A stretch of 62,431 nucleotides of DNA from Bacteroidota bacterium (GTDB lineage Bacteria > Bacteroidota > Bacteroidia > Chitinophagales > JADIYW01): positions 1-62,431 of the forward strand of contig JBDKHK010000035.1 of NCBI GenBank assembly GCA_039797705.1, given 5' to 3'. This document shows positions 1,118 to 10,174 of the stretch, piece after piece. How positions within the stretch are numbered: the stretch's first letter is position 1; every line of letters begins with the position of its first letter. A program made the translations under genes and the position numbers. The notes under the pieces are model-generated. The model was not told the origin of the DNA. It did not search any database and saw nothing but the letters and a program-made list of their open reading frames with translations.

Positions 1118-1145
1118 CTAAATACTTCACTTATATAAATTAAAT

Positions 1146-1180
1146 AAACCGCAGCAATGTCTGCGGTTTATTTATTATTA
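1146..1180 (+). terminator. Rho-independent terminator
   Basis: Perfect 9-bp stem, aaaccgcag (1146-1154) with ctgcggttt (1161-1169), and a 6-nt loop. A T-rich tail follows. It lies 29 nt after the stop of the upstream ORF. Confidence 0.7.
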
Positions 1181-1264: not shown

Positions 1265-1272
1265 TACATTTG
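1265..1272 (+). promoter_or_regulatory. Bacteroidota-type -7 promoter box (TAnnTTTG)
   Basis: TACATTTG lies 24 nt upstream of the moxR ATG. The same motif class recurs upstream of many genes in this window. Confidence 0.35.
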
Positions 1273-1295: not shown

Positions 1296-2288
1296 ATGGA
1301 ATCCATAGATATAAAAACATTAAACGAAAAAATACAACAAGACAGCGCTTTTTTGGAGTTGCTAAACATGGAAATTTCCAAATCTATCGTTGGACAAAAA
1401 TACATGGTGGAAAGATTGATGATTGCTTTATTAGCACAAGGGCATATTTTATTAGAAGGTGTTCCGGGTTTAGCGAAAACTTTAGCCATTAAATCTTTAT
1501 CAGATGCGATAGATACTAAATTCTCTCGCATTCAATTTACGCCGGATTTACTGCCGGCAGATATTTTAGGCACCATGATTTACAATCAAGCAAAAGGAAA
1601 TTTTGAAGTAAAAAAAGGACCTATCTTTTCTAATTTCGTTTTGGCAGATGAAATAAACCGTGCACCGGCAAAAGTACAAAGTGCTTTATTGCAAGCCATG
1701 CAAGAAAGAACCATTACCATAGGCGATACCTCTTTTAAATTAGAAGAACCATTTTTAGTAATGGCAACGCAAAATCCAATAGAACAAGAGGGTACTTATA
1801 ATTTGCCCGAAGCTCAGGTGGATCGTTTTATGCTCAAAGTAAAAATTGGCTATCCTGAGTTTGAAGACGAGCGACAAATCATGCGACAAAATGTAAGTGG
1901 AAAAAATCCAAACATAAATCCGGTTATTTCAGCTCAAACTATTTTACAAGCGCGCGACACCGTGCGCAAAGTGTATATGGATGAGAAAATAGAAAAATAT
2001 ATTCTCGATATTGTTTTTGCCACCCGTGAGCCTTCTAATTACAAAATTGACAACCTGAAACATTTAATTAGCTATGGAGGTTCCCCGCGTGCAAGTATCA
2101 GTTTGGCGTTAGCGTCTAAAGCGTATGCATTTATCAAGCGACGTGGATATGTTATCCCCGAAGACGTTCGTGCCATTGCACAGGATGTGTTGCGCCATCG
2201 CATCGGTATTACCTACGAAGCAGAAGCAGAAAACATTACCCAAGAACATATTATTGACACTATTCTAAATCGGGTAGAAGTTCCTTAG
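1296..2288 (+). CDS. MoxR-family AAA+ ATPase (first gene of the Bat aerotolerance operon)
   Basis: Walker A GVPGLAKT and Walker B VLADEINRA. The region MATQNPIEQEGTYNLPEAQVDRF is typical of MoxR/AAA_3. DUF58 and vWA genes follow. Confidence 0.9.
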   Translation: MESIDIKTLNEKIQQDSAFLELLNMEISKSIVGQKYMVERLMIALLAQGHILLEGVPGLAKTLAIKSLSDAIDTKFSRIQFTPDLLPADILGTMIYNQAKGNFEVKKGPIFSNFVLADEINRAPAKVQSALLQAMQERTITIGDTSFKLEEPFLVMATQNPIEQEGTYNLPEAQVDRFMLKVKIGYPEFEDERQIMRQNVSGKNPNINPVISAQTILQARDTVRKVYMDEKIEKYILDIVFATREPSNYKIDNLKHLISYGGSPRASISLALASKAYAFIKRRGYVIPEDVRAIAQDVLRHRIGITYEAEAENITQEHIIDTILNRVEVP

Positions 2289-2311
2289 GGTGAAAGTGAG
2301 GCTGAAAGTGA
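2289..2311. repeat. Left arm of the inverted repeat flanking the four-helix-bundle gene
   Basis: ggtgaaagtgaggctgaaagtga is the reverse complement of 2717-2739 at 22/23 positions. It is built from a roughly 12-nt unit, GTGAAAGTGAGG, repeated twice. It starts 1 nt after the moxR stop codon. Confidence 0.85.
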
Positions 2312-2312
2312 A

Positions 2313-2708
2313 TTGGGTTTTAAAATTTTTAAAGAATTAATAGAAAAAATGTTAGACGATTTTTCTGCATATATAAAATCAAATGAAATTTGGGATTTAA
2401 CATGGGAGGATACTAAAATTCTTCAAAATGATTTTAGAGGTAAAGAAATAGCTAAACAACTAATTCGTTCAGTAGGCTCCGTTTCTGCCAATATAGAAGA
2501 AAGATATGGTAGAGGATCTAAAAATGAATATCCTCATTTTTTAAGAATAGCACGTGGATCTGCTACAGAATCAAAAGGATGGTACAAAAAATCGAATCAA
2601 ATATTAGATAAGGATACTGTTGAAGTGCGAATTAATTTATTAAATGAAATAATTGAAATTTTGACAAAAACAATCTCAACACTTATAGCAAATTCAAAAC
2701 AAAAATAA
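2313..2708 (+). CDS. Four-helix-bundle protein (23S rRNA intervening-sequence protein / Avd-like family)
   Basis: The motif ...QLIRSVGSVSANIEERYGRGSKNEYPHFLRIARGSATES... matches the family pattern xSxxANIAEGxGRxSxKExxxFLxIAxGSxxE. Size is about 120-131 aa. The start is ambiguous (TTG at 2313 or ATG at 2349). Confidence 0.8.
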   Translation: MGFKIFKELIEKMLDDFSAYIKSNEIWDLTWEDTKILQNDFRGKEIAKQLIRSVGSVSANIEERYGRGSKNEYPHFLRIARGSATESKGWYKKSNQILDKDTVEVRINLLNEIIEILTKTISTLIANSKQK

Positions 2709-2716
2709 ATAATACA

Positions 2717-2747
2717 TCACTTTCACCCTCACTTTCACCTTCACTTT
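2717..2747. repeat. Right arm of the inverted repeat (plus one extra repeat unit)
   Basis: The sequence is tcactttcaccctcactttcaccttcacttt. Positions 2717-2739 pair with 2289-2311 at 22/23. The region ends 6 nt before the DUF58 ATG. Confidence 0.85.
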
Positions 2748-2753
2748 ATAACA

Positions 2754-3620
2754 ATGGAAGTATCAGAATTACTCAAAAAAGTACGGAAAATAGAAATCAA
2801 GACAAAGGGCTTGACAAATCATATTTTTTCCGGTGAGTATCATTCTGCGTTCAAAGGTCGAGGAATGTCTTTTTCTGAAGTTCGGGAATATCAATACGGC
2901 GATGATATACGCAATATCGATTGGAATGTTACCGCTCGTTTTGGTCATCCGTATGTGAAAATATTTGAAGAAGAACGAGAACTAACCATCATGCTTTTAA
3001 TTGATGTGAGTAAATCTTCTTTTATAGGAACACAAAATCAATTGAAGAATGAAACAATTGCTGAAATAGCTGGCGTATTGGCATTTTCAGCGATACAAAA
3101 CAATGATAAAGTAGGCGTATTGTTTTTCAGCGATAGCGTCGAAATGTTCATTCCTCCAAAAAAAGGCAAATCACATATTCTTCGCATCATTAGAGAGATA
3201 TTGAATTTTAATCCAAAGAGTAATAAAACCAATATTTCCGTTGCTTTAGAGAACTTTAGCAATATGGTAAAAAGAAAGAGTATTGCATTTGTTTTATCCG
3301 ATTTTATAGATGAAAATTATGCAGATGAATTGCGACATATTGCAAAAAAACACGATGTAATTGGAGTAAAAGTATATGACCAATTAGATATGGAACTTCC
3401 GAATATTGGATTACTGCAAGTTTGCGATGTAGAATCAGGAGATGCAAAATGGATAGACACAGCAGATAAACAAACACAAGCAACTTATAAAGAACGAGCA
3501 AATTTTTATGATAAAAATTTTGATCAAAGCTTTATGAAAGCCGGTGCAGATAAGTTGAAAATAAAAACAGAACAATCTTATGTTCATATATTGATGAATT
3601 TCTTTAAAAAACGCGCATAG
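2754..3620 (+). CDS. DUF58 domain protein (vWA-like; Bat operon)
   Basis: YQYGDDIRNIDWNVTAR signature of DUF58. It holds the position after MoxR, as in known MoxR-DUF58-vWA operons. Confidence 0.85.
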   Translation: MEVSELLKKVRKIEIKTKGLTNHIFSGEYHSAFKGRGMSFSEVREYQYGDDIRNIDWNVTARFGHPYVKIFEEERELTIMLLIDVSKSSFIGTQNQLKNETIAEIAGVLAFSAIQNNDKVGVLFFSDSVEMFIPPKKGKSHILRIIREILNFNPKSNKTNISVALENFSNMVKRKSIAFVLSDFIDENYADELRHIAKKHDVIGVKVYDQLDMELPNIGLLQVCDVESGDAKWIDTADKQTQATYKERANFYDKNFDQSFMKAGADKLKIKTEQSYVHILMNFFKKRA

Positions 3621-3632
3621 CGAAATTTGATA

Positions 3633-4619
3633 ATGAATCGTAACAAAGGAAATATTTTTTTATTGTTGAAATGCAAAAGCATTTTCAAATTCATTGTATT
3701 AATACTTACTTCCCAATACTTATTACTCAATACTGCTTTTGCTCAAACAGCCACCGCATCTACCAAACAAAAAGAATATGTAATTGGAGATTGGATACCG
3801 GTAGATTTATTTGTTTCCGGTGCCGTAAATAATAAAATTGTTTTTCCATCTTTAAAAGATTCTATTTCTGAAACCATAGAAGTAGCCAATTATACACCTA
3901 TTGATACTGTAAAAAAAGCAGGACAATATGAATACCATCAATTGGTCAATTTAATTGTATTTGATACTGGTCAAATTCAATTACCGCAATTTCAGTTTTT
4001 AGCAGATAACAACGGCAAGTTAGATACTTTCCTTACTGACCCAATAACTATTCGTGTAGCCGGCGTAAAAATTGACACCACAAAAGATATTAAAGACATT
4101 AAACAACCTTTAAAAATCCCTTACACCTTTCAGGAAATTTTACCTTATCTGATGGGTGTTTTATTGGCAATATTAATCATAGGATTAATTATTTGGATTA
4201 TAAAAAATAGAAAAAAGAAAGTTACGCCAATAGATGAAAAATATTTATTACCTCCGCATGTATGGGCGTTTAAAGAATTGGAAAAATTACATCAAGAAAA
4301 ATTATGGCAAACAGGAGATGTGAAAATATATTATTCACGCTTAACGGATATTGCCAGAAGTTATATTGAGCTTCGATATAAAATTCCGGCAATGGAACAA
4401 ACCACCGACGAGCTAATGTCGGCAATGCACAAAGGAGTGATGAAGCAATCCTTAAAGAAAGAGTTAAATGATGTTTTAGTATTGAGTGATTTTGTAAAAT
4501 TTGCCAAAGCTCAACCCGATTTTATGGAAAATGAAAACTCCTATAAAATCATTCATGATTTCATTGATAAAACAAAACAATTAGAAGAAGAGAAAAAAAC
4601 AGATAAAAAGAGTAGTTAA
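3633..4619 (+). CDS. Bat-operon membrane protein (BatD-like N-terminal domain, central TM helix, cytoplasmic helical tail)
   Basis: Signal/anchor sequence and a single strong TM helix (LPYLMGVLLAILIIGLIIWII followed by KNRKKK). It sits between DUF58 and batA. The ATG at 3633 is preferred over the TTG at 3627. Confidence 0.6.
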   Translation: MNRNKGNIFLLLKCKSIFKFIVLILTSQYLLLNTAFAQTATASTKQKEYVIGDWIPVDLFVSGAVNNKIVFPSLKDSISETIEVANYTPIDTVKKAGQYEYHQLVNLIVFDTGQIQLPQFQFLADNNGKLDTFLTDPITIRVAGVKIDTTKDIKDIKQPLKIPYTFQEILPYLMGVLLAILIIGLIIWIIKNRKKKVTPIDEKYLLPPHVWAFKELEKLHQEKLWQTGDVKIYYSRLTDIARSYIELRYKIPAMEQTTDELMSAMHKGVMKQSLKKELNDVLVLSDFVKFAKAQPDFMENENSYKIIHDFIDKTKQLEEEKKTDKKSS

Positions 4620-4679
4620 AATTATTTGTTAATAGTTGAATCCAATAACTAATAACTGATAAACAATAAATAATAACCA

Positions 4680-5687
4680 ATGGCTAAATTTCTACCATAC
4701 ACATTTGCGCATCCACCATACTTTTGGCTATTGCTGGCAGTGCCTTTGTTAGTGTATTGGTTTTATTACAAACGAACTTCTTATTATCCTACTTTCAACC
4801 TACCGCAACATGGGGGCGTTTTAACTCAGCAAGCAGGATTAAAAGTAAAATTATTGGCATTGCTTCCCTTGTTGAAAATTTTGGCTTTCGTTTTTATCGT
4901 TATAGCACTTGCCCGCCCACAAAGTGCGCTGTCTGAAAAAGAAATTTCTACACAAGGAATAGATATTGTTTTGTCATTAGATATTTCAGGCTCCATGCTC
5001 GCAAAAGATTTTGAACCCGACAGATTGGAAGCAGCAAAAAAAGTAGCCATGAATTTTATCAAAGAAAGACCAAATGACAGAATAGGCTTAGTAATTTTTT
5101 CGGGTGAAAGCTTTACGCAATGCCCAATTACGATAGACCATCAAGTGTTGTTGAATTTATTTAAAGACATCCACAGTGGAATGGTAGAAGACGGCACAGC
5201 TATCGGAATGGGATTGGCAACAGCCGTTGCCCGATTGAAAGAAAGTAAATCAAAAACTAAAGTCATTATTTTAATGACGGATGGCGTAAACAATACCGGA
5301 TATATTGACCCACATACAGCAATACAAATTGCTAAATCTTATGGAATACGTGTTTATACTATTGGAATTGGAAAAAATGGAATGGCACCGTATCCTGTAA
5401 CCGACCAAAACGGAAAGACTTTTTATCAAAATTTTCCAGTTCAAATAGACGAAGCATTGCTAAAAACCATTGCGAAAGAAACCGGCGGAAGTTATTACAG
5501 AGCAACCGGTAATTCCTCTTTAAAATCTATTTATAACACCATAGATAAATTAGAAAAAACAAAAATAAAAATCAATAACTATCATAGAAAAAGCGAACAC
5601 TTTCATGTATTTGCTTTTTTAGCAATGTTGTGTTTATTAACAGAATTTATTTTATCTAAAACATATTTAAAAACGATACTCAACTAA
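4680..5687 (+). CDS. batA: vWA-domain aerotolerance protein BatA
   Basis: N-terminal TM helices, vWA MIDAS motif DISGSM...MTDG, and a C-terminal TM helix. Its stop overlaps the batB ATG (TAATG). Confidence 0.85.
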   Translation: MAKFLPYTFAHPPYFWLLLAVPLLVYWFYYKRTSYYPTFNLPQHGGVLTQQAGLKVKLLALLPLLKILAFVFIVIALARPQSALSEKEISTQGIDIVLSLDISGSMLAKDFEPDRLEAAKKVAMNFIKERPNDRIGLVIFSGESFTQCPITIDHQVLLNLFKDIHSGMVEDGTAIGMGLATAVARLKESKSKTKVIILMTDGVNNTGYIDPHTAIQIAKSYGIRVYTIGIGKNGMAPYPVTDQNGKTFYQNFPVQIDEALLKTIAKETGGSYYRATGNSSLKSIYNTIDKLEKTKIKINNYHRKSEHFHVFAFLAMLCLLTEFILSKTYLKTILN

Positions 5688-6712
5688 TGCTACATTTTGA
5701 ACATAAGGAATATTTCTTTCTATTGTTATTGATACCTATCATAACAGGGTTATATTTCTATATTCAATTTCAAACACGCAAGCAATTAAATAAAATTGGC
5801 AATTTAGAATTAATTCGCCGATTAATGCCAGAAAGAAATGACCAAAAAAGTTTTGTAAAATTAATTGCATTAAATCTCATTTTATTCTTTTTGACAATTG
5901 CGTTAGCACAGCCACAAATGGGCACTAAAATGGAAAAAGTGCAACGCAAAGGAATTGACGTGGTAATTGCTTTAGATGTTTCGCGAAGCATGTTGTCGCA
6001 AGATGTTGCACCCTCTCGCTTAGAAAAATCTAAATTATTAATTCAAACTTTATTAAAAAAATTAGATGGCGACAGAATTGGTTTAGTCATTTTTGCAGGA
6101 AATGCCTACTTACAAATGCCACTAACGGTTGATTATTCTTCTTTGTTGTTGTATTTGCGTTCCATCACCACCAATTCTGTCCCTACGCAAGGAACCATTA
6201 TTTCAGATGCATTGGAAAAAGCAGAAGGAGCTTTTAAAGCAGCCGACAAAAAACATAAAGCCATTATCGTAATTACAGATGGAGAAGACCATGAAGAGAA
6301 CGCCATTGACAAAGCAGAATCCATTGCGTCTGACGGAACAAAAATATTTACAGTGGGCGTAGGAACGCCTAATGGCGGCACTATTCCGATATATGATGCC
6401 AATGGCCGTATTGCAGGAGAAAAGAAAGATGAAAAGGGGGAGGTGATTGTTTCTAAAATGAATCCCAATATGCTGCAAGCTTTGGCAAAAGGAGGCAATG
6501 GAAATTATTATTTATTAGACAACACGAAACAGGTAGCTGATTTTTTATCTAAAGACATTGGAAAAATTGAAACTAAAACGATTAACGATAAAGTATTTAC
6601 AGATTTTGTAGAACAATTTCAATATTTTTTAGCAGCTGCATTGTTGTTGTTATTACTCGATTTATTTGTAACTTACAGAAAACAATGGATGGATTTTAAA
6701 AATGAAAAATAA
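5687..6712 (+). CDS. batB: vWA-domain aerotolerance protein BatB
   Basis: Two N-terminal TM helices, MIDAS motif DVSRSM...ITDGED, and a C-terminal TM helix. It overlaps batC by 11 nt. Confidence 0.85.
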   Translation: MLHFEHKEYFFLLLLIPIITGLYFYIQFQTRKQLNKIGNLELIRRLMPERNDQKSFVKLIALNLILFFLTIALAQPQMGTKMEKVQRKGIDVVIALDVSRSMLSQDVAPSRLEKSKLLIQTLLKKLDGDRIGLVIFAGNAYLQMPLTVDYSSLLLYLRSITTNSVPTQGTIISDALEKAEGAFKAADKKHKAIIVITDGEDHEENAIDKAESIASDGTKIFTVGVGTPNGGTIPIYDANGRIAGEKKDEKGEVIVSKMNPNMLQALAKGGNGNYYLLDNTKQVADFLSKDIGKIETKTINDKVFTDFVEQFQYFLAAALLLLLLDLFVTYRKQWMDFKNEK

Positions 6713-7520
6713 GATACAACATATAAAACAATGGATGCAAAAAAACAAGAAAATTGTTTTTGTCTTATTTATATTGAAATTTTTAGTCCAGATTTCTATT
6801 CTTGGAATTGTAATGTTGACAACTGCAAAATGTAGTGCGCAAAGCACAAATAGCCTTTTGCGAGAGGGAAACAAAAATTATAATAAAGAAAAATACAACA
6901 ACGCTACCGAGAGTTATAGCAAAGCATTACAAAAAGCACCTCACGATGTGCGCGCCGCCTTCAACCAGGCAGATGCTTTATATAAGTTAAATGAATTGGA
7001 TAAATCCAAAGAGATGTTTGCCGCCGTTGCAAAAGCATCCACCAATACAGACATCCAATCCAAATCTTTTTATAATATTGGAAATATACATTATAAACAA
7101 GAAAAATGGGAAGAAAGCGTAAAAGCGTATAAAGAATCATTGAAACGCAATCCAAAAGATGAAGATGCCAAATATAATTTAATGATGGCAATGGACAAAA
7201 TAAAGAAGAATCAGAATAACCAAAACAAAGACGACAAGAAAGACAACAAAAAAGATAATAAGGATAACAAAGACAACAAACAACAAAATCAAAATAAACA
7301 GCAGGATAAGAATCAAGATAAACAGCAACAAAACCAACAACAGGGGCAAAACAATCAACAGCAGCAACCCAAACAAGGACAACAGCAACAGCCACAAATG
7401 AGCAAGGAAGAAGCTCAAAAACTATTAGATGCCATTGGTGCCGAAGAAAGTAAAGTACAACAAAAATTAACCAAAGAAAAAGGTCAACCGGCCAAAGGAA
7501 AAATCCAAAAAGATTGGTAA
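6702..7520 (+). CDS. batC: TPR-repeat protein BatC with a Q/N/K/D-rich low-complexity tail
   Basis: TM anchor and TPR repeats (FYNIGNIHYKQEKWEESVKAYKESLKRNPKDEDAKYNL). Operon position fits BatC. Confidence 0.7.
   Translation: MKNKIQHIKQWMQKNKKIVFVLFILKFLVQISILGIVMLTTAKCSAQSTNSLLREGNKNYNKEKYNNATESYSKALQKAPHDVRAAFNQADALYKLNELDKSKEMFAAVAKASTNTDIQSKSFYNIGNIHYKQEKWEESVKAYKESLKRNPKDEDAKYNLMMAMDKIKKNQNNQNKDDKKDNKKDNKDNKDNKQQNQNKQQDKNQDKQQQNQQQGQNNQQQQPKQGQQQQPQMSKEEAQKLLDAIGAEESKVQQKLTKEKGQPAKGKIQKDW
7203..7400 (+). repeat. Low-complexity coding repeat (AAC/AAA/CAA/GAC-rich) encoding the Q/N/K/D tract of BatC
   Basis: Encodes KKNQNNQNKDDKKDNKKDNKDNKDNKQQNQNKQQDKNQDKQQQNQQQGQNNQQQQPKQGQQQQPQ. It generates long spurious antisense ORFs. 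Confidence 0.8.
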
Positions 7521-7541
7521 TAGAAAAGTAAGATTTGATAG

Positions 7542-9422
7542 ATGAAATTTTTTTACAACAATAGTTTTCATGTTATTTCCAAAAATTCTGTTGGAGGTAA
7601 AATTGCATTATTACTTTTCATTTTTCATTTTTCATTTTTAACAATCTATGCCCAACGTTTTACGGCAACCGCAGAAACCAATCAAGTACCGCAAAACTAT
7701 TCTTTTGAAATTACCTATGCTGTTGAAAACGGAAATTTACAAAAATTTACACCACCCAATTTTGATGGATTTGAGGTAGGCGGTCCGGCGCAAAGTACTA
7801 ATGTTTCTATTATCAATGGGCGAGTGTCTAAGTCTGTTTCATATACTTACACCTTGCAACCACGCAAACAAGGCGACTTTATTATTGGGCCTGCTACCGC
7901 TGTTATCAATGGAAATGAAATGAAGTCGAATTCCATTTCTATTAAAGTAACCGCACCAGAAAAAAGGCAACAACAGCAATCTCAGCAAAACAATGACCCA
8001 TTCGATTATTTTCGAGATCGGCAACGCTCACAAGTAAGCGAAGACAATATTCGGGATATGGTGAAAAAAAACATGTTTGTTCGTGTTATTCCAAGCAAAA
8101 ATTCGCTTTATCAAGGCGATCAACTTTCACTTTCATACAAACTATATTTTCGAATTCAATACCAATCTCTGCAAGCAGTAAAAAACCCAAGCTATAATGG
8201 CTTTTTGAGTGAAGAATTCAAATTGCCCGAACTAAAACCCAATGCAGAACCACCGATTGAAGTGTACGAAGGGAAGAAATATTACACCATGGAATTCAAA
8301 CACGTTTCTTTATTTCCTACCAAATCAGGAAAGATTGCTATTGAACCAATAGAATTGCAAGGCTCCGTTTTAGTCGAAGTACCCGATCCAGATTTTGGTG
8401 GATTTTTCAGCACCCTACAACCGTATGATTATTCCTTTAAAAGCAATGCTATTGAATTGGATGTAAAACCATTACCAGAAAAAAACAAACCTGCTACTTT
8501 TAGTGGTGCTGTCGGAAAGTTTTCTTTTAAAGCAGAATATGATAAAACAAAATGTAGTGTGGGCGATCCCATCAACTTGAAACTAACCTATAATGGAACG
8601 GGGAATTTGAAATTAATTACGCCGCCCAAATTAATTTTTCCAGAAGAATTTGAAGCGTATGAACCCAAAACAAAAGATGATTATACGAATAATGGCAGTG
8701 TAGTTACAGGCTCTAAATCATTTCAATATACTTTAATTCCGCAAGATGGAGGTATCTATAAATTGCCTAAATATGAGTTTGCCTATTTTGATGTGGACAA
8801 AGGAGATTATGTGAAATTTACACTTCCAGAAACAACAATAGAAGTAAGTGGAAAAGCAAAAATCAGTCAAAATGTTATCAGTTTTTTCAAGAGAGAAAAA
8901 GAAGACAAGCCTAAAAGTATTTATGGCATCCAAACACAATATGCAAGCAATACTACTTTTGTAGGTAGCAATGGATTTTGGGCGCTGACAGCCGCACCTT
9001 TAATACTCCTTTTAATTGGTTTTCTTTTTAGAAGAAGAGAATATTCCGATGGCGAATTATTGTCGATGCGCAGAAAGAAAGCCAATAAAATTGCCTTGCG
9101 AAGAATGGCAACTGCCAAAAAATTATTGCAACAAAAAAATGAAAATGGATTTTATAATGAAATAATTCGGGCACTTTGGGAATATTTATCCGATAAATTA
9201 CTTATCCCTCCGAGTGAATTATCTAAAGACAATATTGCAGAGAAACTAAAAGCAAGGAATGTTTCGGTAGATAAAATAGAAGCACTTACGCATACATTAG
9301 ATACTTGCGAGCAATCTTTATTCTCCCCAATCGGAAAAGAAGATGCGATGCAGGAAACGTATAAAAAATCTATAGAATTAGTGATGGATTTTGAGGAACA
9401 ATTAAAACAGCAAACCACATGA
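7542..9422 (+). CDS. batD: BatD (oxygen-tolerance) protein
   Basis: 626 aa with a signal sequence and repeated beta-rich extracytoplasmic modules. A TM helix lies near FWALTAAPLILLLIGFLF and is followed by RRRE and a helical tail. An ATGA overlap joins it to batE. Confidence 0.75.
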   Translation: MKFFYNNSFHVISKNSVGGKIALLLFIFHFSFLTIYAQRFTATAETNQVPQNYSFEITYAVENGNLQKFTPPNFDGFEVGGPAQSTNVSIINGRVSKSVSYTYTLQPRKQGDFIIGPATAVINGNEMKSNSISIKVTAPEKRQQQQSQQNNDPFDYFRDRQRSQVSEDNIRDMVKKNMFVRVIPSKNSLYQGDQLSLSYKLYFRIQYQSLQAVKNPSYNGFLSEEFKLPELKPNAEPPIEVYEGKKYYTMEFKHVSLFPTKSGKIAIEPIELQGSVLVEVPDPDFGGFFSTLQPYDYSFKSNAIELDVKPLPEKNKPATFSGAVGKFSFKAEYDKTKCSVGDPINLKLTYNGTGNLKLITPPKLIFPEEFEAYEPKTKDDYTNNGSVVTGSKSFQYTLIPQDGGIYKLPKYEFAYFDVDKGDYVKFTLPETTIEVSGKAKISQNVISFFKREKEDKPKSIYGIQTQYASNTTFVGSNGFWALTAAPLILLLIGFLFRRREYSDGELLSMRRKKANKIALRRMATAKKLLQQKNENGFYNEIIRALWEYLSDKLLIPPSELSKDNIAEKLKARNVSVDKIEALTHTLDTCEQSLFSPIGKEDAMQETYKKSIELVMDFEEQLKQQTT

Positions 9423-10174
9423 AAACTATAGGACAAAAATGGATACTGTTTTTTGTGAGTTGCTTGTTTTTTATAGCAATGCAAGCACAAGACGTGAAAA
9501 CAATATTCCAAACAGCAAATACGTATTACAAAAATAAACAGTACGAAGAAGCCGAAAAAATGTATGCATTGTTATTGCAAAAAGAAAAAGGAAATGTCAA
9601 CGTTTTTTACAATTTAGGAAATACATATTTTCATTTGAATGATTTTCCAAAAGCAGTTTTATATTATGAGAAAGCATTAAAAATGCAACCAGACAATCAA
9701 CATATCTTGCACAACATAAAAGAAACCAATAATAAATTGTTTTCCAAAATGGAATTCAGCAAAGAGTTTTTTGTAACAAAGCAATTGAAAAATGTGGTGC
9801 AGTCTAAATCTGCTAATAAATGGAGTGTTTATATGTTGATTGCTTTATGGTTGGGCGTTATTGCTATCTGTATTCATTTTTTCTTTGGCAGAAAAAATAT
9901 ATTTCAATTTGGATTGCTTTCCTTAATTATTGCTGCAGTTTTTGCATGGCTCACATATCATACTTATTCGATAGAGCACCAACAAGACTATGCTATTATT
10001 TTACAGAAAAATGCCTTTATAAAAAGTGCGCCGGTAGAAAGTTTGAATAAAGCAGACTCCATTCAAACAGGGCTGAAAGTTCAAATCCTCGATTCCGATA
10101 AAAGCTGGTTGAAAGTAAAACTACCCAACGATAAAACGGGTTGGATAGAAAAAAAATCTCTTGGACTTATTTAA
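9419..10174 (+). CDS. batE: BatE (TPR + TM + C-terminal SH3-like domain)
   Basis: TPR repeats (YYKNKQYEEAEKMY..., FYNLGNTYFHLNDFPKAVLYYEKALKMQPDN), TM helices, and an SH3-like end (KSWLKVKLPNDKTGWIEKKSL). Confidence 0.7.
   Translation: MKTIGQKWILFFVSCLFFIAMQAQDVKTIFQTANTYYKNKQYEEAEKMYALLLQKEKGNVNVFYNLGNTYFHLNDFPKAVLYYEKALKMQPDNQHILHNIKETNNKLFSKMEFSKEFFVTKQLKNVVQSKSANKWSVYMLIALWLGVIAICIHFFFGRKNIFQFGLLSLIIAAVFAWLTYHTYSIEHQQDYAIILQKNAFIKSAPVESLNKADSIQTGLKVQILDSDKSWLKVKLPNDKTGWIEKKSLGLI

Follow-up and report, generated by a model that had tools for sequence, protein, structure and literature searches.

The intervening sequences (IVSs) found in the 23S rRNA of Leptospira and Coxiella burnetii carry an open reading frame (ORF), S23p or 23S_rRNA_IVP, whose product has been known since 1993 and appears in thousands of annotations under the name “four helix bundle protein.” To our knowledge, IVS proteins have no known function outside diversity-generating retroelements (DGRs). 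A gene of the same protein family is present in a contig of 62,431 nt from a Bacteroidota bacterium (GenBank assembly GCA_039797705.1, contig JBDKHK010000035.1); this whole stretch, at its full length, is referred to here as the window. The four-helix-bundle (4HB) gene is positioned between moxR and the DUF58 gene of a moxR/bat operon and is enclosed by two complementary repeat arrays, the arms. On balance, and with moderate confidence, the gene and its arms are interpreted as an IVS-type cassette: a 4HB gene with neither promoter nor terminator that sits in an intercistronic spacer, is read with the operon, and is bounded by self-complementary arrays that would form a stem in the transcript, with the gene as its loop.

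In Coxiella, the ends of the IVS form a 28-bp stem that RNase III cuts in its middle and that encloses the S23p ORF (PMC4990558). The likeness of the window cassette to ORF-bearing IVSs extends beyond the protein family. In both, an ORF of about 120 aa lies within complementary ends that form a stem of about 24–28 bp, for a total length of about 430–460 nt; both are transcribed within a host RNA and have a G+C content below that of the host, and ORF-less and ORF-bearing forms occur at equivalent sites. In contrast to the defining location of an IVS, however, the host RNA in the window is a protein-coding operon (moxR/DUF58) rather than an rRNA helix, and arms of the window type are tandem arrays of 6–8-nt units. 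The ORF is under purifying selection here (ratio of nonsynonymous to synonymous substitution rates, dN/dS, 0.04–0.31 among close orthologues), whereas it is decaying in Coxiella. Excision by RNase III is known for IVSs; the stem of the cassette is a predicted one.

The pentameric Avd protein of DGRs binds RNA stem-loops, and DGR RNAs pair sequences that flank the template repeat (TR) (10.1101/2023.10.23.563531). The cassette protein shares the Avd fold, with template modeling (TM) scores of 0.7–0.8 to the Avd structures 4dwl and 8ube, and the genetic arrangement is comparable in that Avd binds an RNA stem-loop encoded beside its own gene and a long-range duplex surrounds an intervening segment. 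In contrast to DGRs, no reverse transcriptase, template repeat, or variable repeat is found at the cassette, whose neighbors are moxR, DUF58, and the bat genes, and the window protein gives no match to the NCBIfam Avd model NF033474.

Correia/NEMIS elements of Neisseria and ERIC/IRU elements of enterobacteria are co-transcribed intergenic or intercistronic elements whose terminal inverted repeats fold in mRNA, with proposed or shown processing by RNase III/E. Both are geneless, occur in many near-identical copies, and have target-site duplications. They resemble the ORF-less hairpins described below, whereas the arms of the cassette are tandem-unit arrays of locus-specific sequence and no duplication is seen. 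Integron cassettes are likewise small, promoterless, single-gene modules that are co-oriented and expressed from an upstream promoter; in both, an imperfect inverted-repeat structure belongs to the cassette, and cassettes may stand in series (three in locus L117). Unlike integron cassettes, the present cassettes have repeats on both sides of the gene and are scattered in housekeeping operons, with no integrase (among the scanned genes at 1296–10174 and in orthologous loci), no attI, and no single 3′ attC.

Earlier papers place 4HB genes between cas genes and inside rRNA insertions of the candidate phyla radiation (CPR), and an “association” of 4HB genes with cas genes has been reported (PMC3936711). 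Neither flanking tandem-unit inverted arrays nor cassette behavior was found described in the literature searched, and the family-wide generalization presented here is the part most likely to be new. What had been a vague annotation becomes a testable system: a fixed module of an AT-rich gene between a tandem-unit arm and an inverted arm, which is present in housekeeping operons across phyla and leaves hairpins or solo arrays as relics. The cassettes would account for some of the unusual, repetitive hairpin spacers between Bacteroidota genes that are transcribed together. They also carry a warning for annotation, because 4HB genes would be operon passengers rather than functional partners, as in the case of cas genes.

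The cassette in the window

The left and right arms (2289–2311 and 2717–2739) are complementary at 22 of 23 positions (96%), as the initial annotation of this DNA had reported, and a second register (2293–2311 with 2729–2747) provides 19 nt of 89% complementarity. This is the sole inverted repeat of such quality in the window among those with arms at most 800 nt apart. The 12-mer GTGAAAGTGAGG, with at most one mismatch allowed, occurs three times in the window, always within the arms, as compared to an expectation of 0.12. The unit of roughly 12 nt from which the arms had been said to be built does recur as 12-nt direct repeats (2287–2298/2299–2310 and 2717–2728/2729–2740), but the basic period is 6 nt, with four RRGTGA-type units in the left arm and five TCACYY units in the right. 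The placement of the arms against the host cistrons also agrees with the initial annotation. The left arm starts directly after the moxR stop codon, which one register overlaps by 2 nt, and 6 nt separate the last position of the right array from the DUF58 ATG. The whole spacer from moxR to DUF58 measures 465 nt.

Folding recovers the stem that had been anticipated between the arms, as a predicted 24-bp helix with one C·C mismatch. The duplex energy of −38.8 kcal/mol lies far below that of shuffled sequences (mean −15.1, minimum −25.6 kcal/mol), and within a 501-nt transcript context the pair probabilities of the arms are about 1.0 in silico. The same sequence is present in independent metagenome assemblies. 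Variants without the cassette or with other numbers of units were not found, contigs from the DNA runs that bear the window being identical and free of joints and raw reads barely covering the region. No long direct repeat surrounds the window cassette.

The arms and the cassette gene are co-transcribed with the flanking cistrons. Two contigs from wastewater metatranscriptomes (2065–2629 and 2159–2419) pass unbroken from moxR through the left arm into the 4HB gene, and a third (2510–2803) passes from the 4HB gene through the right arm into DUF58. These are assembled contigs of low depth, in which DNA carry-over is possible and which are silent on cleavage; the RNA contigs that end at 2306 and 2750 are too few for interpretation. 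Between 1266 and 3700, the sense strand has a single TAnnTTTG box, 23 nt in front of moxR, and the cassette is therefore without a promoter box of its own. No terminator-like site was found inside it.

Membership of the cassette protein in the 4HB family, first proposed from its motif, is confirmed by profile matches to PF05635 (E 1e-14, 55.1 bits, cut-off 33.8) and TIGR02436 (67.7 bits, cut-off 24). The gene almost certainly starts at ATG 2349, giving 119 aa, rather than at TTG 2313, because all homologues have 119–121 aa and begin with ML(D/E)DF. The monomer modeled with AlphaFold2 has a predicted local distance difference test (pLDDT) score of 92.7 and helices at residues 6–25, 29–50, 61–84, and 88–118. 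Its top Foldseek matches are BT_0352 (2rld) and XCC0516 (2gsc), with TM scores of 0.80–0.88, followed by DGR Avd; a profile search likewise finds 2gsc and 2rld. Homopentamers are known for 2gsc and Avd. The conserved RS.GS..ANI.EG.GR ... GS..E motif is present in the window protein by alignment. Residue 52 (nt 2502–2504), in the most conserved motif, is Arg (EERYGRG) in the window protein and Gly (EEGYGRG) in at least 90% of the aligned relatives. The substitution ratios given above indicate that the window protein is under purifying selection. The G+C content at third codon positions (GC3) of the gene is 12.5%, as compared to 25–32% in neighboring genes of the window.

Arms and junctions across the gene family

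Two distant 4HB subfamilies were surveyed at 155 loci from many phyla, and each gene was assigned a flank score, defined as the best inverted repeat that its upstream and downstream flanks (150 nt each) form without gaps. In subfamily 1, to which the window gene belongs (78 genes from Bacteroidota, Ignavibacteria, Chloroflexota, Armatimonadota, and others), the median flank score is 14, versus 8 for 247 further ORFs at these loci (p = 3e-22), and 51 of the 78 genes score at least 12. The high-scoring controls in this survey are mostly neighbors of cassettes or further cassettes. Subfamily 2, about 34% identical and spread over many more phyla, scores 15 versus 8 (p = 6e-18), with 55/75 as the corresponding count. 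The expectation that arm-flanked 4HB ORFs would be found beyond the window is thus borne out, since locus-matched inverted arrays surround the genes of both subfamilies.

The arms are nearly always arrays of 6–8-nt units, with a period of 7 in 31/51 loci of subfamily 1 and 33/55 of subfamily 2 and a median of 3–4.5 units (maximum 12–19). When the arms of all loci are compared with one another, the best or near-best partner of a 5′ arm is its own 3′ arm, so that the match is locus-specific and goes beyond a shared vocabulary. The vocabulary itself follows the protein: the unit core is that of the subfamily. A G[GT]GA core recurs in 31 of 51 subfamily 1 arms (shuffles: mean 9.5, maximum 17), where GTT recurs in 4 of 51; conversely, GTT recurs in 41 of 55 subfamily 2 arms (shuffle mean 13.6) and GNGA in one of 55. 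Strains with an identical protein differ by whole arm units, and the arrays therefore turn over fast. A G-rich 5′ arm was considered as a sign of polarity relative to the ORF and was rejected, as the 5′ arm of an inverted repeat is the same on both strands and the feature is a palindrome-type property only. At L265–L272, the 5′ ends of many unrelated public contigs fall within the 5′ repeat array of one and the same 4HB gene, about 70 nt before it. Because assemblies are interrupted at such arrays, short-read metagenomes under-represent cassette contexts.

Where the neighboring genes are co-directional, the cassette runs with them in 59 of 63 loci of subfamily 1 and 46 of 47 of subfamily 2 (105:5 overall). 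The GC3 of the cassette gene is below that of the host genes in 72/75 and 65/70 loci (L097–L256), by a median of 12–13 points; this low GC3 holds even where the cassette has long been inherited vertically.

A second cargo has the same intercistronic cassette design. Two outliers among the controls proved to be GxxExxY proteins (TIGR04256, PD-(D/E)xK-like), which are unrelated to 4HB proteins. At L118:684–1079 and L124:796–1191, a GxxExxY cassette shares its operon with a 4HB cassette and lies one junction upstream of it. Across 72 metagenomic loci (L273–L352), GxxExxY genes have a flank score of 11 versus 8 (p = 1e-11), and their arms are arrays of CAC[ACT]AAG / CTT[AGT]GTG.

The moxR–DUF58 junction is occupied by a cassette in at least 23 genomes from several Bacteroidota orders. 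Related metagenome-assembled genomes (MAGs) encode proteins about 70% identical to that of the window at the same moxR–4HB–DUF58 position, and a search for the subfamily found this arrangement in 21 of 80 species-level genomes; among the carriers are Chitinophagales, Flavobacteriales, and further Bacteroidia with a MoxR only 70–77% identical to that of the window. At 19 loci, the distance matrix of the 4HB proteins is correlated with the MoxR matrix (r = 0.81) and with the DUF58 matrix (r = 0.82; Mantel p ≤ 0.0005 for both). These comparisons indicate that the cassette at this junction is old and vertically inherited with the operon, and the low dN/dS argues that what is inherited is a functional protein. 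Arms are present in 20 of the 23 loci, at medians of 8.5 nt from the moxR stop to the 5′ arm and 7.5 nt from the 3′ arm to the DUF58 ATG. The unit at this orthologous site varies by lineage (e.g., GTGAAA, GGGACGA, GGGGACA, and others), and both arms must therefore have changed in concert.

In a separate sample of 75 Bacteroidota moxR–DUF58 junctions, none carries a 4HB gene. These junctions are tight in Bacteroidales (−56 to about +20 nt), whereas Flavobacteriia mostly have spacers of 45–140 nt, several of which are hairpins with tandem-unit arms. The tight junction proposed to follow from removal of the cassette is not what ORF-less relatives outside Bacteroidales have, as most of them show such 45–140-nt spacers. 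Among the sampled Bacteroidota loci, tandem-unit ORF-less hairpins make up 19% of moxR–DUF58 spacers and 14% of other co-directional spacers of 50–300 nt. The idea that the ORF-less moxR–DUF58 hairpins are simple relics of the window subfamily’s cassette is not supported as such, their units being mostly GTT-type or AT-rich rather than G[GT]GA; the one demonstrated relic is that of another subfamily, at BatA–BatB. Unrelated ORFs of about 125–147 aa occupy the moxR–DUF58 gap at L059:4984–5402 (Tenacibaculum aiptasiae) and L065:4987–5421 (Rikenella microfusus), with no detectable inverted repeat at either.

At the BatA–BatB junction, the ground state is compact, with −8 to +32 nt in 45 of 63 loci. 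Four genomes have inserts of 470–512 nt at this position, which are 4HB cassettes of two subfamilies: three belong to subfamily 1 and have GGGACGA-type arms, and the fourth (L039) belongs to a different 4HB subfamily and has GGTTGAA-type arms. Compared in this way, the filled sites represent two independent insertions. In another Lutibacter genome (L007), the 75-nt BatA–BatB spacer can be aligned to the final codons and the 3′ arm of the L039 cassette and is therefore a deletion relic. Further BatA–BatB spacers are ORF-less hairpins or solo arrays; the spacer at L073:8029–8071 is a solo array, (ATTACGA)x4, with no complementary partner and may be a one-armed relic. The view in the initial annotation of a discrete inserted module stands in part: arms and ORF form a discrete unit that was inserted as such at BatA–BatB, but the cassette is no recent arrival at moxR–DUF58.

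Elsewhere, subfamily 1 cassettes are hosted by acyl-CoA dehydrogenase/HMGL, thioredoxin/DsbD, ABC-2 permease, xanthine-dehydrogenase subunit, Cas6/Cas1, and BatA/BatB genes. Recent transposition was not seen, the exact proteins P0003, P0005, P0007, P0032, and P0057 each occurring in one context only. No target-site duplication is visible at cassette boundaries, and the arm motif belongs to a single cassette copy in the 62 kb. No rRNA was found beside 20 related cassettes with ORF-free flanks. Individual loci show further contexts. Three 4HB cassettes stand in series at L117:1048–3268 (1048–1434, 2489–2848, and 2909–3268), the first of a divergent subfamily with its own CGAATGT/CGAATAT-type arms. 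In L216, a 4HB cassette (1501–1899) lies directly upstream of a tmRNA gene (1971–2342, RF00023), and in L233 a cassette (731–1171) lies downstream of an S15 ribosomal-protein leader (RF03161, 290–347), in what may be an rpsO-type operon.

Proposed mechanism and rival explanations

The family-wide architecture, the matched arms at each locus, co-orientation, co-transcription, purifying selection, vertical inheritance, and the existence of filled, empty, and relic sites are established. As an IVS-type cassette, the element would act in the polycistronic RNA, where the arms, higher in G+C than the AT-rich loop, would zip into a helix of about 24 bp. With the AT-rich gene in the loop of this helix, the moxR stop and the DUF58 start would come to lie side by side again, and insertion would therefore leave the host cistrons coupled. 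A ribosome terminating on moxR would need to open the base of the stem and would thereby free the DUF58 start region. RNase III could plausibly cut the helix, as it does in 23S rRNA IVSs of the same protein family. The 4HB protein probably recognizes its own arms through their repeated units: the unit core is specific to each subfamily, the solved relatives are pentameric, and Avd binds an RNA stem-loop beside its own gene. Slippage and template switching between the arms at the DNA level probably help to keep them matched.

Several observations weigh against this interpretation. The assembled RNA contigs that cross the arms contain neither a processed nor a joined form. Selection for a helix in the sense RNA would predict an excess of G·U over A·C among arm mismatches, and none is seen (49 vs 59 and 61 vs 83 in the two surveys; 110 vs 142 together), a result that fits DNA-level homogenization or fast array turnover equally well. 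The 5′ arrays may far exceed their 3′ partners in length, which pairing alone leaves unexplained. Arms have been lost from the moxR–DUF58 cassettes of L122, L132, and, weakly, L113, and they are therefore not indispensable. The subfamily-specific cores could equally reflect common descent of arms plus ORF. Finally, the family has no known mobility enzyme, and an identical protein was not seen in two different contexts.

Some of these observations favor an element that is mobile at the DNA level, with arms that serve as terminal inverted repeats or hairpin ends, read by the element’s own protein or by a host or trans-acting recombinase, and with the RNA stem as an incidental product. The missing sense-strand wobble signal speaks for such an element; arms and ORF move jointly into unrelated operons and phyla with subfamily-specific units; the tight BatA–BatB junction was entered twice, independently; the unrelated GxxExxY cargo has an arm vocabulary of its own; and the ORF-less hairpins and solo arrays resemble derivatives of the miniature inverted-repeat transposable element (MITE) type. 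The strong co-orientation and the arms that hug stop and start codons, however, point to constraint at the level of transcription or translation. The boundaries lack a visible target-site duplication, identical copies are not seen in different contexts, classical terminal inverted repeats do not resemble tandem 6–8-nt arrays that vary in length, and the 4HB fold has no known catalytic activity, all of which leave a DNA-level element an unlikely, though not negligible, explanation. The frequency of ORF-less tandem-unit hairpins would also suit a spacer in which the hairpin came first, as a host element for regulation or processing, and in which a small ORF was captured later in the loop. This order of events is very doubtful, as the unit cores track the protein subfamily rather than the host or the junction, armed cassettes are found at BatA–BatB, where the genes by default overlap or stand a few nucleotides apart and a hairpin is missing, and at least one short spacer (L007) is demonstrably a cassette deletion relic.

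It is similarly improbable that the 4HB protein has been domesticated by the MoxR/Bat system as an accessory or regulatory subunit, with the inverted repeat as a mere expression signal. Co-inheritance with moxR and DUF58 across orders, purifying selection, and the presence of cassettes at two different junctions of the Bat operon would agree with such a role, but the same protein subfamily is present in unrelated operons (including those of cas genes), and its absence from the 75 sampled Bacteroidota junctions shows that it is not a core Bat gene. The suspicion of a chance match or an assembly artefact arises from the low complexity of the arms and from the tendency of public assemblies to break at such arrays; it is refuted by the identical sequence in independent metagenome assemblies, by the motif count set against its expectation, and by orthologous arms in many genomes. 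An extension of the IVS-type cassette reading would unite the 4HB (TIGR02436) and GxxExxY (TIGR04256) genes with their cognate 6–8-nt arrays as an unrecognized class of autonomous cassettes, in which a small multimeric protein reads its own arms to promote cassette maintenance, processing of RNA, or insertion at intercistronic junctions and in rRNA helices and which does without a classical transposase, integrase, or reverse transcriptase. This broader proposal is tentative and rather unlikely; if true, it would at last give the IVS protein a function.

Layout of the locus

The window is AT-rich (33.6% G+C) and belongs to an uncultured bacterium, its sequence is found in activated-sludge and wastewater metagenomes, and the nearest genomes are Chitinophagales/Saprospirales MAGs. 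The features around the cassette are listed in Table 1.

Table 1. Positions of the cassette, its host cistrons, and associated signals in the window
Feature	Position	Strand	Basis or remark
Terminator-like hairpin of the gene upstream of moxR	1141–1174		
Candidate Bacteroidota-type −7 promoter box (TAcaTTTG) of the moxR/bat operon	1265–1272	+	Pattern scan
moxR (AAA_3 ATPase), upstream host cistron	1296–2288	+	PF07726, E 1e-64; TAG stop 2286–2288
5′ arm, four tandem hexamers (AGGGTG AAAGTG AGGCTG AAAGTG A)	2287–2311	+	48% G+C
AT-rich leader, 5′ arm to cassette-gene ATG	2312–2348	+	13.5% G+C
4HB protein gene, 119 aa	2349–2708	+	PF05635/TIGR02436; 28% G+C
3′ arm, five tandem hexamers (TCACTT TCACCC TCACTT TCACCT TCACTT T)	2717–2747	+	
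DUF58 (vWA-like), downstream host cistron	2754–3620	+	PF01882, E 1e-77
BatA/BatB junction of the window, 1-nt overlap, no cassette	5684–5690	+	

The overlaps between cistrons that the initial annotation had quoted for this operon are correct (1 nt at 5687, 11 nt at 6702/6712, and 4 nt at 9419/9422), and the remaining junctions have gaps of 6, 60, and 21 nt. It had also seen no transposition or retroelement gene nearby, and in agreement with this no recombinase or reverse transcriptase is present among the Pfam-scanned genes at 1296–10174 or among the neighbors in orthologous loci, including the upstream gene. An Rfam scan of the window matched no family, and no further 4HB ORF was found in its 62 kb.

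Two other genes of the operon have distinctive features. The 330-aa gene between DUF58 and BatA (3627–4619) encodes an N-terminal hydrophobic segment, gives no match in Pfam and NCBIfam scans, and is kept at the same position in the orthologous loci L086, L092, and L096. The TPR (BatC-like) protein encoded at 6702–7520 has a long C-terminal tail of low complexity, rich in K, D, N, and Q (…NKDDKKDNKKDNKDNKDNKQQNQNKQQ…QQQPQ).

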